Positions 7,989 through 11,121 of a DNA stretch of 64,000 nt are shown piece after piece; the stretch's first letter is position 1; the number at the start of each line of letters is the position of its first letter. Source of the DNA: Escherichia phage vB_EcoM_KAW3E185; sequence record MK373782.1, one strand, 5' to 3'. The translations under genes were made by a program, and so were the position numbers. The notes below the pieces were generated by a model that saw only the letters and a list, made by a program, of their open reading frames with translations, had not been told where the DNA came from and did not search any database.

Positions 7989-8453
7989 TTATTTAATTTG
8001 TTTAGCAGACCAGATACGGTCTTTAATAAGTTTTTGGATATCTTCAACATACTCAAGGCTATGAGCGTGAGGATTATCTTTGAAACTACGTGCTCGTGCC
8101 AGTTTCTGGCCTTCTGTTTTGATTACTAAAAGCTCTTTAAGAATTGCTTCATACTTAGAAATAATTCCTTTAACGATATTTTTTTCTTGAGCTGTTTTAG
8201 GGTCAGTTTTTGGCGCAGGTGCTTTACCTGTAGCTTTCTGGAACAATTCACCTGATGCAGCTAGGCTTTTAAAAACTCGGCTAACAGTATTAGCATTAGT
8301 AAAACCTTCGGCTTTAAAATCTCTAATAAAACGGAAACGTTCTTCATCGGAGGCGTCTTTGTAAGAATATTTACCTGCTTGAATTGCTGCAATCGCAGCG
8401 GCTTTTACATCTGAACTAGATTGTTCAGTCAAAAATTCAGCGTATGATTTCAT
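7989..8453 (-). CDS. Internal-protein-like (IP) gene with capsid targeting sequence
   Basis: N-terminus MKSYAEFLTE matches the T4 IP targeting sequence MKTYQEFIAE with an L-x-E prohead-protease site; 154 aa. Confidence 0.7.
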   Translation of the reverse strand: MKSYAEFLTEQSSSDVKAAAIAAIQAGKYSYKDASDEERFRFIRDFKAEGFTNANTVSRVFKSLAASGELFQKATGKAPAPKTDPKTAQEKNIVKGIISKYEAILKELLVIKTEGQKLARARSFKDNPHAHSLEYVEDIQKLIKDRIWSAKQIK

Positions 8454-8496
8454 GTTGCTTTTCCTAAGTTAATTAACTTATCTATTTATTATTATG

Positions 8497-8525
8497 CCAA
8501 AAAGCCCCAACCGTAAGGAAGGGGC
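8497..8525 (-). terminator. Intrinsic terminator (copy 2 of the 29-nt repeat)
   Basis: Identical to 7954..7982; downstream (minus) of the non-coding RNA region. Confidence 0.6.
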
Positions 8526-8577
8526 TAAGCCTTGCGGCAACCTTGTCGGGGTTCCACCTGCTAAGGCAAGTGTTTGT

Positions 8578-8669
8578 ACGAAACGCCGGGATTCGAACCC
8601 GGTTATTAAGCAGTTGACGCTACTCAATATTTTTAAAAGGCCATATCTCGACCATATCCGAACGTTCCG
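8578..8669 (-). ncRNA. tRNA-like element or stable RNA candidate (canonical T-arm, non-canonical remainder)
   Basis: Minus strand contains CCGGG-TTCGAAT-CCCGG T-arm and an acceptor-like pairing, but the D and anticodon arms do not fold canonically; lies in a ~300-nt ORF-free stretch. Confidence 0.35.
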
Positions 8670-8832
8670 TCAAAAACGCTACTCGGCTTACGGCAAAGAT
8701 ATTTCCTCGAATCGATAATTCGGTGCGCCGTTTCTGTTGTGATAGTAAAGAATCAGAACACAGTAAAACTGTGGGAGAAACTATACTCCAGGGAACATCA
8801 GTCCGACGACTTACCGGTAGCGACCCGGTTTC

Positions 8833-9177
8833 TCATTTTGGCATATCATCAATTTGCTCTCGACGCCGACGCCATAGATTAATCGCTTCATTAACACATT
8901 CGGCGTTTGGTATATGACGGCAATAATATAATGATTCGCGTTTCTGGAACCGATGTTGCAACGGGATTTCGTTTAAAAGATCTTTACGATCAAAGTATTC
9001 AAAACTAGTTAACCCTGAACGGTTTTTAATGAACTTCCAATGGCCGAATTCATTTTGAACATAGATGTAATCGGCATGCTGATAAAGTGAATTAATCAAT
9101 CGATGAGAAATAACTGTATCATATTCATTAAAATAAAACGTTAAATCATGAACTACCAAATAAATATTGCCTTTCAT
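8833..9177 (-). CDS. Hypothetical protein (115 aa from internal ATG)
   Basis: ORF track 8833..9225; internal ATG MKGNIYLVV has GAGGAAAA Shine-Dalgarno. Confidence 0.5.
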   Translation of the reverse strand: MKGNIYLVVHDLTFYFNEYDTVISHRLINSLYQHADYIYVQNEFGHWKFIKNRSGLTSFEYFDRKDLLNEIPLQHRFQKRESLYYCRHIPNAECVNEAINLWRRRREQIDDMPK

Positions 9178-9195
9178 ATTTTCCTCACTTATAAT

Positions 9196-9272
<77 letters not shown>

Positions 9273-9275
9273 GAT

Positions 9276-9352
9276 TGGTGACCCAGACCAGATTCGAACT
9301 GGTAACCTTTCCCTTATGAGGGGACTGCTGCTAACCGTTGAGCTACAGGGCC
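9276..9352 (-). tRNA. tRNA with CAU anticodon (Met, or Ile if lysidine-modified)
   Basis: Canonical T-arm ACCAG-TTCGAAT-CTGGT, anticodon loop CTCATAA, encoded CCA; one acceptor mismatch and an imperfect D-stem in my reading. Confidence 0.6.
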
Positions 9353-9431
9353 TAAATAACTTTCTATTATGAAAGGCACTTTAGAGCACCTTTGGTAATA
9401 GAGGGTATGAATTAATAATAACACATAATTC

Positions 9432-9947
9432 TTAAAGCAAATCAATCATTTTAACAGTTGGCAAAACGATTTCTTCTTCAATATAAGCAAATTCAACACA
9501 TTCAACTACACACAAGAAATCATAATCATAATATTCAGAAGCATGTCCAAGAATACCAACGAGACCTTCTGATACTAAATATCCATTCTCACAGAACAGG
9601 TCGAATACACGCGATTCGTCTTCTTCAGATTTATTACCAAGGTCGACTTCAATATCAAAGACCTTTTTAATGAATTCTGGATAAAGATGGTCTGAGAACA
9701 GTCCTTCAACCAGATATTCGTAGATAATAAGCGAGCAATCACTGAATGGTGTATTACCACAGTAACGTTCAGCTTTAGTGCTAGAATGACGACTCTTAAA
9801 TTTCTTCAAGAGATATTTAAACTGTTGGAGCTCATGCTCTTCTACACCAAATAATGTTTTGGTTTTATAGTTGTCGCCGTCATTTTCCGAAGTAGTGACA
9901 TCAATTACGTAACCTTTAGGGATTGTACTGCCTAAACAAATATTCAT
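9432..9947 (-). CDS. Hypothetical protein
   Basis: 171 aa; GGTGA Shine-Dalgarno. Confidence 0.55.
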   Translation of the reverse strand: MNICLGSTIPKGYVIDVTTSENDGDNYKTKTLFGVEEHELQQFKYLLKKFKSRHSSTKAERYCGNTPFSDCSLIIYEYLVEGLFSDHLYPEFIKKVFDIEVDLGNKSEEDESRVFDLFCENGYLVSEGLVGILGHASEYYDYDFLCVVECVEFAYIEEEIVLPTVKMIDLL

Positions 9948-9951
9948 TTAC

Positions 9952-10242
9952 TCACCGTACCATATTAATGTAATTATATTCAATGCAACGTAATTTCAAA
10001 GTGTTCTTGAAAATATCGTATTCAAGAGGGCCTGATTCAGTTTCAATAAAGAAATCAAAATTAACTGTGTTAAATTTATTGTCTTCACAGAGTAATTTAA
10101 CCTGTGAAGATGAACGGTCGATATAAACCTTTTCAACCTCAAAGTTAGTCAGAATACCGTAGTCATCGACTAGTGCTTTAGCTGCACGTTGGTCGCTTTC
10201 ATATCCATTCTCAACGGATTTTACCTTAGCATAAAGAATCAT
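9952..10242 (-). CDS. Hypothetical protein
   Basis: 96 aa; start overlaps the stop of the next gene. Confidence 0.5.
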   Translation of the reverse strand: MILYAKVKSVENGYESDQRAAKALVDDYGILTNFEVEKVYIDRSSSQVKLLCEDNKFNTVNFDFFIETESGPLEYDIFKNTLKLRCIEYNYINMVR

Positions 10243-10601
10243 GAATGTTCCACCACTTCAAAGGTATGAGCATCAACAATATGATACCAGTCAAAATTTT
10301 CTTCTGAGTTTTTATAAATTTCGCGAAGAGCTTCAACAGTTTTTCCTGTAGCAACAAGATCATCAATACCACCAAGAGGATAACAGTCATAACCAGCAAA
10401 CAGAAGGAAATTAATAGTTTCTGTAGGTTCTGGATGCAGAACACCGTTATCGTCTACCACTTCAAAGAAAGTGTAAGAAGGAGTACAAGTTTTAATCCAA
10501 GCCCAGGCTTGAGCTGCTGAATCAAATGGTCCGCGTATCAAACGACAATCAGGGTCTTTAGAAGGATTTGCTTCAAAATCTGCATATACATGATATTTCA
10601 T
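10239..10601 (-). CDS. Hypothetical protein (120 aa from internal ATG)
   Basis: ORF track 10239..10619; internal ATG MKYHVYADF has AAGGTGAG Shine-Dalgarno. Confidence 0.55.
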   Translation of the reverse strand: MKYHVYADFEANPSKDPDCRLIRGPFDSAAQAWAWIKTCTPSYTFFEVVDDNGVLHPEPTETINFLLFAGYDCYPLGGIDDLVATGKTVEALREIYKNSEENFDWYHIVDAHTFEVVEHS

Positions 10602-10602
10602 T

Positions 10603-10809
10603 TTACTCACCTTTTGCAATTTTATCCATAACGATAGCGATTAAGCCGATTAGAAATGCTACTACCAATGAGATAGAATTTTCTGTTGTTGTCAGTAGTC
10701 CACAAATGAATCCTACAAACATCGAAAAACTAAAAGCCATTGAAGCAATTACTACAGCAACATTACGAATCAGTTCAGCGCGTTTCATTTTATTTCTCCA
10801 TTTACTCAT
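10603..10809 (-). CDS. Small two-TM membrane protein
   Basis: 68 aa; two hydrophobic segments; PeSL cassette upstream. Confidence 0.55.
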   Translation of the reverse strand: MSKWRNKMKRAELIRNVAVVIASMAFSFSMFVGFICGLLTTTENSISLVVAFLIGLIAIVMDKIAKGE

Positions 10810-10857
10810 TTGTTTTGATAGGACTACTATATCATATCCCTATAGGCTTGTATACCT

Positions 10858-11121
10858 TTATTTCAAATATATTGCGTATTTTTTATAGCCACCAGGCTCG
10901 TGTCGAAGACCTTTATCATTTGCAAAACGTTGAATGTTATTGAACTGATTTTCATCAAGTTCAGACGTGTCAAATATGAAAAAGTTTCGTTTGTTACCAA
11001 GCGTGATATGCGGAGTTAAGTCAATGTTATACAAATTAAGAATATCAACAATAACCTGATTGACCGCTTTGTTAATTTTCACACCAGACGATTCTGAGAT
11101 GAATTCGTTGAAAGTTTTCAT
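10858..11121 (-). CDS. Internal-protein-like (IP) gene with capsid targeting sequence
   Basis: MKTFNEFISE at internal ATG (ORF track starts 4 codons earlier, at 11133); L/I-x-E cleavage motif. Confidence 0.65.
   Translation of the reverse strand: MKTFNEFISESSGVKINKAVNQVIVDILNLYNIDLTPHITLGNKRNFFIFDTSELDENQFNNIQRFANDKGLRHEPGGYKKYAIYLK

Follow-up and report, generated by a model that had tools for sequence, protein, structure and literature searches.

Judging by alignment, the 307-nt stretch at positions 8526-8832 of the window (the whole 64,000-nt sequence analysed here, from the Tequatrovirus Escherichia phage vB_EcoM_KAW3E185, MK373782.1) encodes the orthologues of two phage T4 RNAs, first rnaD (species 2 RNA) and then rnaC (species 1 RNA). 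The region is already known as that of the T4 species 1 and 2 RNAs and is not a new element. We consider it highly probable that this orthology, together with a reading of rnaC as a tRNA mimic that would be matured by the host and whose two arms would kiss through their apical loops, accounts for the stretch.

The identity of the two RNAs comes from comparison with annotated phages. A blastn search with the 307-nt stretch gives matches in 809 phage records, with 100% identity to phage HY01 and 90% identity to T4T, and the T4T features that lie beneath the match are rnaC and rnaD. As suspected in the first-pass annotation, which had proposed a stable RNA like the T4 species 1 and 2 RNAs, the region aligns end to end with the annotated rnaD and rnaC of T4T (HM137666) and RB33 (KM607001). 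The annotations of T4T, RB33 and ATK47 list rnaD and then rnaC, in the same order and downstream of tRNA-Arg, and a four-way alignment of the locus is collinear. For rnaC, 137 of 139 bases are identical to the T4 RNA over its full length. The species 1 and 2 RNAs of T4 have been known since the 1970s. Both accumulate late in T4 infection, have been validated by northern blot and are of unknown function (PMC9697503, PMC3014915); T4 rnaC was found by northern blot to be an abundant stable RNA of ~140 nt in infected cells (PMC9697503). Reviews and papers of 2010, 2022 and 2025 all give the function of rnaC and rnaD as unknown, which is also all that our literature search returned (Miller et al. 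2003 and the primary papers of the 1970s lay outside this search).

On the minus strand, the stretch is bounded upstream by the TGA stop codon of a 114-aa ORF (8835-8833) and downstream by an intrinsic terminator, AGCCCCUUCCUUACGGUUGGGGCUUUUU (8499-8526, minus strand), which we located by reading and folding the sequence. This terminator is absent from the output of a simple terminator scan, and equivalent sites in related phages carry a terminator annotation. The only tRNAs that ARAGORN calls in the window are tRNA-Arg (9196-9272) and tRNA-Met (9276-9352), and Rfam at gathering thresholds gives the same two and nothing more; the location originally described, between a terminator and a protein gene and near two tRNAs, agrees with these limits and calls. 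The tRNA transcription unit runs from a MotA-box-like promoter at ~9441 through tRNA-Met, tRNA-Arg, the 114-aa ORF, rnaD, rnaC and a trailer to the terminator; rnaC, preceded by rnaD, thus lies at its 3' end, ahead of the terminator and of the genes on the e.8 side. No late promoter of the form TATAAATA is found on the minus strand between 8400 and 11000, where the MotA-box-like site at 9441 stands alone. The 3' trailer of the primary transcript (8527-8574, minus strand) is 48 nt long with three small hairpins, and its sequence is kept even in JS98, a phage without rnaC. Although this phage has two tRNAs against the eight of T4, both rnaD and rnaC are retained.

The stretch is non-coding. Overlapping it are mechanical ORFs of 28-74 aa only, none of them a credible gene, which bears out the first description of about 300 nt free of ORFs. 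Many GenBank records annotate hypothetical proteins across this locus. These entries and the mechanical ORFs are what would favour the idea that 8526-8832 encodes small proteins, an idea to which we give next to no credence: no reading frame was found that is open across all rnaC homologues, whose lengths (139-143 nt) differ by 1-3 nt and not in multiples of three, the substitutions are compensatory for RNA helices, and in the curated records of T4, RB33 and ATK47 the features at this place are RNAs.

The rnaD orthologue occupies 8722-8837 on the minus strand, with its ends, AAUGAGAAACC...GGCGCACC, set by equivalence to T4, and on the 5' side it overlaps the stop codon of the 114-aa ORF. It is an allele of the T2/HY01 type: 98 of 122 bases are identical to T4, the first 48 and last 13 bases being the same and the centre replaced, and this T2-type allele bears the annotation 'rnaD: species II RNA' in T2L (AJ880101). 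RNAalifold on 17 sequences predicts a hairpin 1, ACCGG-GUCGCUA-CCGGU (8813-8829, minus strand; 5-bp stem and 7-nt loop), in which the Mosigvirus type has G-C in place of an A-U pair and phiWec188 has A-U in place of a C-G pair; over the shared fold, 9 of 23 pairs are changed on both sides. The predicted 3' end falls 1-2 nt past the closing helix. This 3' end, ...GGCGCACC(A), is tRNA-like, and we considered rnaD as a degenerate tRNA, but a matching 5' acceptor strand or T-arm was not found. Overall, rnaD is a separate, independently mobile structured RNA, with one hairpin at the 5' end and a second one, long and irregular, whose apical module can be swapped. It is present away from tRNA genes in Yersinia phage P8, and our rnaC covariance model has no match in six rnaD-bearing loci other than that of JS98; the two RNAs are separable modules, and rnaD has moved into an unrelated phage family. 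A T4-like phage became more virulent on the host ECOR34 through a single convergent SNP in rnaD (PMC12685909). This sole reported phenotype concerns rnaD, not rnaC.

The rnaC orthologue covers 8575-8714 on the minus strand (140 nt, with C1 at the 5' end and the last A of UACA at the 3' end); the equivalent of the T4 annotation, 8715-8577 (139 nt), begins one base further upstream and is two bases shorter at the 3' end. By alignment, a spacer GAAUUAU (8715-8721) separates it from rnaD, and in other genera the same AAUUAU follows the CCA of a real tRNA. Going from 5' to 3' along the minus strand, the acceptor 5' strand C1-G2-A3-U4-U5-C6-G7 (8708-8714), which pairs with 8585-8579, is followed by a long arm of ~70 nt (8638-8707) that replaces the D and anticodon arms, as derived from covariation and folding. 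Its helices are a base AGG/CCU, then AUAUCUU/GAGAUAU, GCCGUA/UAUGGU and CCGA/UCGG, and an apical stem GCGUUU/GAACGU. Next comes a U/A-rich, single-stranded linker, UUUAAAAA (8630-8637), which varies in length and sequence among homologues, and then hairpin 2 (8604-8629), with a 10-bp stem and a 6-nt loop, which ends 1 nt before the T-stem and topologically takes the position of the long variable arm of a class II tRNA. The T-arm CCGGG-UUCGAAU-CCCGG (8586-8602) and the acceptor 3' strand CGUUUCG with its tail U-ACA (8575-8585, from comparison of homologues) complete the molecule. The T-arm had been reported on the minus strand from the start, and a motif scan for a 5-bp stem around TTCRANY on both strands of the 64-kb window finds it at 8602-8586 as one of only two instances (estimated chance expectation ~0.1 per 128 kb), the other being the T-arm of the real tRNA-Met at 9303-9287.

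The acceptor-like pairing noted in the first-pass annotation also proves real, but its partner is ambiguous in a single sequence because three 5' candidates are possible; comparative data select CGAUUCG at 8714-8708. One of the discarded candidates is the 3' end of rnaD, GAAACG, which makes six contiguous pairs in the T4-likes and implies a 158-nt unit spanning both RNAs. We reject it on two grounds: in genera without rnaD an intact rnaC still lies just behind the CCA of a tRNA, and position 70 covaries with the proximal strand, CGRUUCG. The 5' end of rnaD, GAGAAAC (a ~250-nt unit), is rejected on the same grounds, and the internal CGGAACG (a ~92-nt unit) is not conserved across arm classes. 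Among the 26 distinct sequences aligned, 11 have A-U and 15 have G-C at acceptor pair 3:70, while 4:69 and 5:68 are U.U in all 26, so that the seven positions of the helix comprise five Watson-Crick pairs and two conserved U.U. These two mismatches and the C1-G72 pair count against reading rnaC as a tRNA mimic.

Covariation across relatives had been put forward as a check, and it supports the fold. The loop motifs served as anchors for a block alignment of these 26 sequences, in which the cells are 91.5% paired and both sides have changed in 18 of the 38 pairs; none of 500 shuffles is as good, and slid controls pair at 32-45%. The middle pair of the T-stem covaries (G-C in 10, U-A in 14), nine of the ten pairs of hairpin 2 are changed on both sides, and in the helix that includes the apical stem six of ten pairs covary across arm classes. 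For the T4/Karam class, the full arm is 93.7% paired with 13 pairs changed on both sides, and the long-arm feature is paired in 95% of cells with 4 pairs so changed. The base of the long arm, AGG/CCU, is invariant among homologues and therefore gains no support from covariation; alternatively, the Gs of AGG could be D-loop-like partners of the T-loop. Our covariance model R1 has one match in the window, at full length and 164 bits, and a model trained on the T4/Karam class recovers untrained arm classes at full length with 70-94 bits. The fold z-score is -3.9 for 8575-8722, a segment slightly offset from rnaC.

The apices of the two arms carry loops that are exact complements of each other: loop 1, UUGACG, on the long arm (8668-8673, minus strand) and loop 2, CGUCAA, on hairpin 2 (8614-8619, minus strand). 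All six positions pair in 26 of 26 distinct sequences of the loop-anchored alignment, and there are no exceptions among the 35 distinct sequences collected with patterns that placed no constraint on the loops. In Marfavirus (four distinct sequences in the alignment) the loops read UUGGCG and CGCCAA, a compensatory change of A-U to G-C. This covariation is one evolutionary event in one clade, the other five pairs being invariant, and four blastn queries from different arm classes together with two unconstrained pattern scans turned up no further lineage with altered loops. The calculated duplex energy is -5.5 kcal/mol for the pair in the window and -7.6 kcal/mol for the Marfavirus pair; of the mixed combinations, one falls to -0.4 kcal/mol and the other, which retains a G.U, stands at -4.9. 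At the level of sequence, then, we have two hairpin loops with evolutionarily maintained complementarity, as in a kissing-loop interaction, and the apical loops of rnaC most likely kiss through a six-base pairing. We did not find this pairing described in the literature searched, a search that did not extend to the primary papers of the 1970s.

How widely is this architecture kept? We collected 35 distinct rnaC homologues from at least eight phage genera, and the total length stays at 139-143 nt even where the sequence of the long arm has been replaced wholesale. The 3' end G-U-[A/C]-C-A is kept in all 35 save one with G72->A; the tail is mostly U73-ACA, and in Marfavirus a genomically encoded U73-CCA. 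In Karam-, Moon-, Winkler- and Gelderlandvirus, rnaC begins 6 nt past the CCA with which a real tRNA ends, and most of these genera have another tRNA within a few bases downstream. Some relatives dispense with rnaC, as in JS98, which precisely lacks it. A scan of 185,579 bacterial genomes for a counterpart gave six chance matches, all in GC-rich bacteria, without the 5' acceptor motif and never with both loop motifs; ~20 metagenome matches to the rnaC pattern are likewise chance. Rfam holds a family for neither rnaC nor rnaD.

Searches for a tRNA at this place come back empty. ARAGORN calls no tRNA, tmRNA or tag ORF at rnaC and rnaD, and the Rfam tRNA model RF00005 at its gathering threshold has no match on the rnaC region. 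Under permissive settings the best Rfam match on the region is tRNA-Sec, whose 16.6 bits (E = 2) fall short of the cut-off of 47, and at E values up to 10 the interval 8400-9000 yields only tRNA-Sec, isrK, GA-cis and a plastid UTR element. The original wording, a T-arm but no canonical cloverleaf, is therefore accurate, and ARAGORN does not make at this place the normal tRNA call that was to have shown the first fold wrong. What rnaC shares with a tRNA is the seven-position acceptor adjoining a T-arm with a GTTCRANYC-type loop; it has no D-arm, no 5-bp/7-nt anticodon arm, no length within 70-95 nt and no score above thresholds. Nor does it have the G3.U70, tag reading frame and pseudoknots of a tmRNA (3:70 is A-U or G-C, and ARAGORN and Rfam are silent), or the signs of a tRNA split by a group I intron (there is no Rfam intron match, and no anticodon-stem halves flank an insert). 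On homologues, ARAGORN does call a 95-nt 'tRNA-Met' in that of an Enterobacter phage (L005), and the annotation of phage G29 places a 94-nt 'tRNA-Lys'; we judge both to be false positives because the internal partner strand and the pseudo-anticodon are not conserved. We also compared rnaC with the co-resident tRNAs as possible sources, and the best match (18/26 in the T-arm/acceptor segment) is mostly T-loop and uninformative.

From this we take rnaC to be most likely a tRNA mimic, not a tRNA. Its ends would form a seven-position acceptor helix stacked on a canonical T-arm and ending in U73-ACA. An acceptor/T-arm minihelix is what RNase P, the 3' trimming enzymes, the CCA-adding enzyme, TrmA and TruB recognise; carrying one, rnaC would therefore be excised from the polycistronic transcript, by RNase P and 3' enzymes, and stabilised by the tRNA maturation machinery of the host. 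In this scheme two cuts, one at a processing site further upstream and one by RNase P at rnaC, would set rnaD free as the piece between them. The loop kiss, which might form within one molecule or between molecules, would either make rnaC a closed, compact molecule that resists nucleases or link several molecules hand in hand; no anticodon-like loop would be left free.

Several other readings of rnaC deserve weighing against this one. It could be a decaying tRNA gene in a tRNA cluster, transcribed without a function of its own, and the perfect T-arm, the acceptor-like stem, the location, the tRNAs called on the L005 and G29 homologues and the absence of rnaC from JS98 all fit. We nevertheless find this very improbable: the compensatory changes in 9/10 pairs of hairpin 2 and 6/10 of the apical-stem helix mean that non-tRNA arms are being maintained, and because of this rnaC is not a decayed tRNA. 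Its architecture and length, moreover, persist in at least eight genera through replacement of the long arm, its loops are invariant or co-varying, it is retained where six of the eight T4 tRNAs are lost, and the T4 product is abundant and stable (PMC9697503). The early suggestion of a degenerate tRNA or a tRNA-derived regulatory RNA stands as far as the tRNA shape goes, with acceptor, T-arm and NCA tail, and falls as far as decay is concerned. Less probable still is that rnaC is an unusual decoding tRNA of ~91-95 nt, with CGGAACG as acceptor strand, hairpin 2 as variable arm and the linker as anticodon, or a tRNA interrupted by an intron. CGGAACG (rnaC nt 46-52) can pair with CGUUUCG, the third pair being G.U, this register is the one that ARAGORN accepts in L005, and the T4-type linker CUUUUAA resembles the anticodon loop of tRNA-Lys. 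However, CGGAACG is missing from the fGh-Ecl01, NM4.3, Marfavirus, Kosakonia and Melville classes, and its nucleotides belong to the covarying apical stem. Each lineage has a different would-be anticodon (UUU, UUG, UAU, CAU, UAC...), the linker is 7-10 nt long without a flanking stem, the copy in the window is rejected by ARAGORN and the Rfam tRNA model, and no other Rfam family, introns included, matches at E up to 10.

There are two further readings. In one, which we regard as unlikely, rnaC and rnaD act only in cis, as 3' punctuation for processing that protects the transcript of the upstream tRNAs and ORF from 3' exonucleases, and the excised pieces persist merely through being well folded. 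This would suit their place at the unit's 3' end, immediately ahead of the terminator, the wedging of rnaC between tRNAs in other genera, where an RNase P site would help separate the neighbours, and the predicted rnaD 3' end, which lies where exonuclease trimming would leave it. Yet one rnaD SNP altered host-specific virulence (PMC12685909), and rnaD is found away from tRNA genes in phage P8. Real tRNAs, besides, already provide RNase P sites, and invariant complementary loops and a conserved arm length exceed what a processing signal needs. In the other, which strikes us as quite improbable, rnaC is a chargeable tRNA-like adaptor (akin to tmRNA or a viral TLS), repaired to CCA at its 3' end, aminoacylated, and acting on the ribosome or on an enzyme that uses aminoacyl-tRNA. 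The acceptor/T-arm minihelix, the discriminator U73, the genomic CCA of Marfavirus and the 3:70 covariation, as expected of a helix that needs to stay intact, speak for it. Against it, most lineages conserve ACA and not CCA, alanine charging needs G3.U70 where rnaC has A-U or G-C, tmRNA and tag ORF are both absent from the ARAGORN output, and no loop is free for decoding. The two U.U mismatches, C1-G72 and U73 also match, to our knowledge, no E. coli identity set, which again counts against charging.

Returning to rnaC as a mimic, we tentatively propose, stopping short of calling it probable, that its role lies in the conflict between phage and host, where, as a tRNA-like decoy or scaffold, it would engage a tRNA-binding protein of the host or of the phage. 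A fuller version, possible but rather doubtful, would have this decoy or scaffold made by host tRNA enzymes, rigidified by the 6-bp loop lock or by multimers like those of phi29 pRNA, and forming together with the mobile rnaD a determinant of host range. If that host-range reading is true, the target would be a tRNA-binding host factor, for example a tRNA-targeting defence nuclease or a 3'-end-modifying toxin, and the reported point mutation in rnaD, which rescues growth on ECOR34, would offer an early view of it. The finding in this window is in itself ordinary, since these are textbook T4 RNAs present in ~800 sequenced phages, but the function of rnaC and rnaD is a 50-year-old puzzle. The comparative model makes this puzzle an experimental one, with C1 as the predicted RNase P site, an NCA/CCA 3' end and a loop pairing that could be broken and restored by single-base swaps already 'tested' by nature in Marfavirus. 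For annotators, it gives a reason to drop hypothetical proteins or odd 94-95-nt tRNAs at the rnaC/rnaD locus.

It is useful to set the locus beside systems that are better understood. As in T4, rnaD and rnaC stand in the same order at the end of the tRNA cluster, with a homologous trailer and terminator region; here, however, the 114-aa ORF (phrog_3355) parts tRNA-Arg from rnaD, whereas rnaD of T4 abuts tRNA-Arg, and rnaD has the central module of the T2/HY01 type, not that of T4. With a canonical tRNA, rnaC has in common the seven-position acceptor adjoining a 5-bp T-stem with a UUCGAAU loop, the single discriminator base, the NCA tail and the location among tRNA genes, but it is 140 nt long, lacks the D-arm and the 5-bp/7-nt anticodon arm, and has two U.U mismatches in its acceptor. 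Both tmRNA and the YrlA-type RNAs are matured by tRNA enzymes, and, like them, rnaC keeps only the acceptor/T-arm half of a tRNA, joined to a non-tRNA body. It differs from tmRNA in having no G3.U70, tag reading frame or pseudoknot ring, and from YrlA in that the ends of YrlA form a Ro-binding stem with the tRNA-like part internal, while the ends of rnaC form the acceptor. We know of no requirement for RNA in T4-type packaging. The phi29 pRNA can also be set beside rnaC: it too is a phage-encoded, late, structured RNA of ~120-170 nt with two mutually complementary loops, and these pair between molecules to form rings (PMC4201828). There is no similarity of sequence or fold between the pRNA and rnaC, and the comparison is one of possible working, not of membership.

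The 307-nt stretch at 8526-8832, read on the minus strand, carries the orthologues of rnaD and rnaC, the small stable RNAs of T4. When these 307 bases are used as a blastn query against 50,697 phage records, 809 records match, with identities of 100% to Escherichia phage HY01 (Tequatrovirus), 97.7% to T2 and 90.4% to T4T; the features beneath the match in T4T and RB33 are annotated as rnaC and rnaD. The gene order in the annotated genomes of T4T, RB33 and ATK47 is tRNA-Arg, rnaD ("species 2 RNA", 119 nt) and rnaC ("species 1 RNA", 139 nt), and a four-way alignment is collinear across rnaD, rnaC, the trailer (the 3' part of the transcript between rnaC and the terminator) and the terminator itself. 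Identity to T4 is 137/139 for rnaC and 98/122 for rnaD, where 48 bases at the start and 13 at the end are unchanged and T4's middle module is replaced by the one that T2-type phages carry (T2L, AJ880101, labels this module type as rnaD). The orthology holds on every feature testable here. The alignment to the annotated RNAs makes the guess of the first-pass annotation, a stable RNA like the T4 species 1/2 RNAs, literally correct: this is a known element, correctly rediscovered.

On the minus strand, 5' to 3', the locus runs through tRNA-Met (9352-9276) and tRNA-Arg (9272-9196), both called by ARAGORN and Rfam, a 114-aa ORF (9177-8836, stop codon 8835-8833; PHROG 3355, unknown function, RB69ORF150c-like), the flagged stretch and an intrinsic terminator recognized by sequence and fold (AGCCCCUUCCUUACGGUUGGGGCUUUUU, 8526-8499). 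From T4-type annotation and alignment we place rnaD at 8837-8722, followed by a 7-nt spacer (8721-8715) and by rnaC at 8714-8575 in our own model, or 8715-8577 as the equivalent of the T4 annotation. The 114-aa ORF fills the interval between tRNA-Arg and rnaD, which is empty in T4; because its stop codon falls inside the T4-equivalent rnaD 5' end (AAUGAGAAACC), rnaD may start at a different point here than in T4. A 29-nt terminator sequence, GCCCCTTCCTTACGGTTGGGGCTTTTTGG, occurs in two identical minus-strand copies, one after rnaC (8525-8497) and the other after the next downstream gene (7982-7954; 154 aa, PHROG 2280). A candidate middle promoter for the entire unit, from the tRNAs through the ORF to rnaD and rnaC, lies just upstream of tRNA-Met (~9441-9410, minus): a MotA-box-like TTTGCTTTA with a TATTAT-type -10 element after it. 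No late promoter (TATAAATA) is found on the minus strand at 8400-11000, although T4 rnaC and rnaD are classed as late.

What had first drawn attention to the stretch was a T-arm (CCGGG-TTCGAAT-CCCGG) with no canonical cloverleaf, and this observation is confirmed as written, since the T-arm is present at 8602-8586 on the minus strand and neither ARAGORN nor Rfam (whether at its gathering thresholds or with E relaxed to 10) calls a tRNA, tmRNA, intron or other family there. The best Rfam match, tRNA-Sec, scores 16.6 bits where the cut-off is 47. In the whole 64-kb window, both strands included, the real tRNA-Met supplies the only other T-arm-type motif. The stretch is non-coding: rnaC homologues are 139-143 nt long and no frame is open in all of them. 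Rfam 15 includes no family for rnaC or rnaD, and many GenBank records wrongly annotate "hypothetical protein" CDSs across both.

Homologues of rnaC were collected from GenBank phage records, IMG/VR and metagenomes with patterns constrained solely at the 5' TTCGAGG and on the 3' side of the T-arm and acceptor, leaving the interior free. Removal of ~20 chance hits (GC-rich soil contigs) leaves 35 distinct sequences, from Tequatro-, Mosig-, Karam-, Moon-, Winkler-, Kanagawa-, Gelderland- and Marfavirus. Scanning 185,579 bacterial and archaeal species at one genome apiece turns up 6 matches, all of them chance, and on this test rnaC is confined to phages. Some homologues (PQ824230, 1554-1648 of the Enterobacter phage locus; MK327940, 573-666 of the phage G29 locus; KJ101592; OK210076) are wrongly labelled, in public records and by ARAGORN, as tRNA-Met, tRNA-Lys or tRNA-Phe of 94-95 nt.

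In a single sequence, the 3' strand CGUUUCG has three possible 5' partners, and it is the relatives that select C1-G2-R3-U4-U5-C6-G7 as the 5' strand of the acceptor. This partner must lie within rnaC, because Karam-, Moon-, Winkler- and Gelderlandvirus, which have no rnaD, keep rnaC just past a real tRNA, starting 6 nt after its CCA (GCCA, AAUUAU, then CGGUUCG); in most of them the next tRNA begins a few bases past the rnaC end. Pair 3:70 covaries (A with U in 11 sequences, G with C in 15), all 26 sequences have U.U at both 4:69 and 5:68, and the middle pair of the T-stem alternates between G-C and U-A. Most lineages have U-ACA after G72, and Marfavirus has U-CCA; in either form a discriminator base is followed by a CCA-like tail. 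The segment from A8 to the T-arm is taken up by a ~70-nt arm and a 10-bp hairpin ending 1 base short of the T-stem. In a gap-free block alignment of 26 distinct sequences (blocks: acceptor plus AGGA; apical hairpin; GGCCU; hairpin 2; T-arm, acceptor and tail), standard pairs fill 91.5% of cells, and in 18 of the 38 pairs both partners vary; 0/500 shuffles do as well, and pairing falls to 32-45% when the partners are shifted by 1-3 columns. The complete arm of the T4/Karam-type class, aligned separately, is paired in 93.7% of cells, with 13 pairs changed on both sides and again 0/500 shuffles. In fGh-Ecl01, NM4.3, PEi20, Kosakonia 305, Melville and Marfavirus a wholesale change of sequence leaves the arm's length and helix plan intact, and a covariance model trained solely on the T4/Karam class still aligns these replaced-arm classes full length at 70-94 bits; it finds exactly one copy in the window (8575-8714, 164 bits).

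Loop 1, at the apex of the long arm (UUGACG, 8673-8668, minus), and loop 2, at the apex of hairpin 2 (CGUCAA, 8619-8614, minus), are exact Watson-Crick complements, and we read this as a 6-bp kissing interaction. Both are invariant in seven genera, and Marfavirus carries UUGGCG/CGCCAA, a compensatory A-U to G-C change; the kissing reading draws on this one evolutionary event. All 6 positions pair in 26/26 sequences; the alignment blocks were anchored on the loop motifs, yet nothing forced R to match Y, and no exception to complementarity is seen among the 35 distinct sequences. The window loops form a duplex predicted at -5.5 kcal/mol and the Marfavirus loops one at -7.6; of the mixed combinations, one gives -0.4 and the other, which retains a G.U, -4.9. 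The kiss could be an intramolecular lock or join multimers hand in hand, the sequence alone being indifferent to which. We found no description of this pairing in the searchable literature. The 9-mer GAGUAGCGU occurs twice in T4-type rnaC (nt 31-39 and 89-97; 8684-8676 and 8626-8618, minus), each copy running into one of the two loops, and its UAGCG complements CGCUA in the loop of rnaD hairpin 1; other arm classes do not conserve the 9-mer, which may have arisen by coincidence or be the remnant of a duplication.

For rnaD, 17 distinct sequences share three helices: a 5' hairpin (ACCGG-GUCGCUA-CCGGU) that shows two compensatory changes, a base helix (GUCGUCG/CGGCG-CAC) and a mid helix ([U/A]GUU/AGC[A/U]) covarying in six sequences. 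In all, 9 of 23 predicted pairs change on both sides, and the apical module is swappable. JS98 (~1200-1330 of its locus) keeps rnaD, trailer and terminator, with rnaC exactly missing between GCGCACAGAA and CACUUGCC; six IMG/VR T4-likes also have rnaD without rnaC, Yersinia phage P8 (~1200-1320) has rnaD distant from any tRNA, and Karam-, Moon-, Winkler-, Gelderland-, Kanagawa- and Marfavirus have rnaC without T4-type rnaD. By these comparisons the two are separable, independent modules. In Klebsiella Marfavirus F48 and Potts1 (~430-527), another hairpin element (GGGGUGG...CCCACCCC), neither rnaD nor tRNA, lies upstream of rnaC, after tRNA-Met. A few Phapecoctavirus genomes (Stephanstirmvirinae, myoviruses unrelated to T4) carry an rnaD-like RNA in the tRNA cluster directly before tRNA-Thr; that of phiWec188 (LC739537, ~1196-1313) has compensatory changes in hairpin 1 and the base helix, and the Phapecoctavirus central module (CCUCCCACAGUUUAACUGUGUUCUGG) resembles the T2/HY01-type center in the window. 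These features point to horizontal transfer of rnaD modules across phage families.

The least that RNase P and the 3'-end and T-loop enzymes need as a substrate is an acceptor/T-arm minihelix carrying an NCA tail. Because rnaC presents such a minihelix, host enzymes probably cut it at C1 and trim or repair its 3' end, as in tRNA maturation; rnaD would be the structured piece remaining upstream of the cut, and its predicted 3' end lies just beyond its closing helix. The kissing loops would give a compact rnaC body with no anticodon-like loop free, consistent with survival of T4's general RNA turnover.

With the identity, folds, non-coding status and distribution of both RNAs established, several roles can be weighed. 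The function is given as unknown in a 2010 review (PMC3014915) and in studies from 2022 (PMC9697503) and 2025 (PMC12685909), while T4 rnaC and rnaD are northern-validated as late-accumulating RNAs (PMC9697503). The phage of the window has lost six of T4's eight tRNAs and retained both rnaD and rnaC, which argues for a role of their own, as does a point mutation in rnaD that alters performance on one host: a single convergent SNP raised the virulence of a T4-like phage on ECOR34 (RBG 0.17 to 0.98) in 3/3 evolved lines (PMC12685909). We tentatively favor a trans-acting tRNA mimic that binds a tRNA-recognizing host or phage protein. A purely cis role for the pair, as a processing or stability element, is unlikely, and it is very improbable that rnaC is a chargeable adaptor; that it is a decaying tRNA, or a real but odd one, we consider scarcely credible. 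The structural model makes this old open question directly testable.

Set beside known systems, rnaC is not a tRNA, whose defining features fail by ARAGORN, Rfam and fold, and those of tmRNA and intron-containing tRNA fail as well. Its 10-bp hairpin holds the topological position of the long variable arm in class II tRNA, and its paired loops resemble those of phi29 pRNA, a likeness of possible mechanism only.
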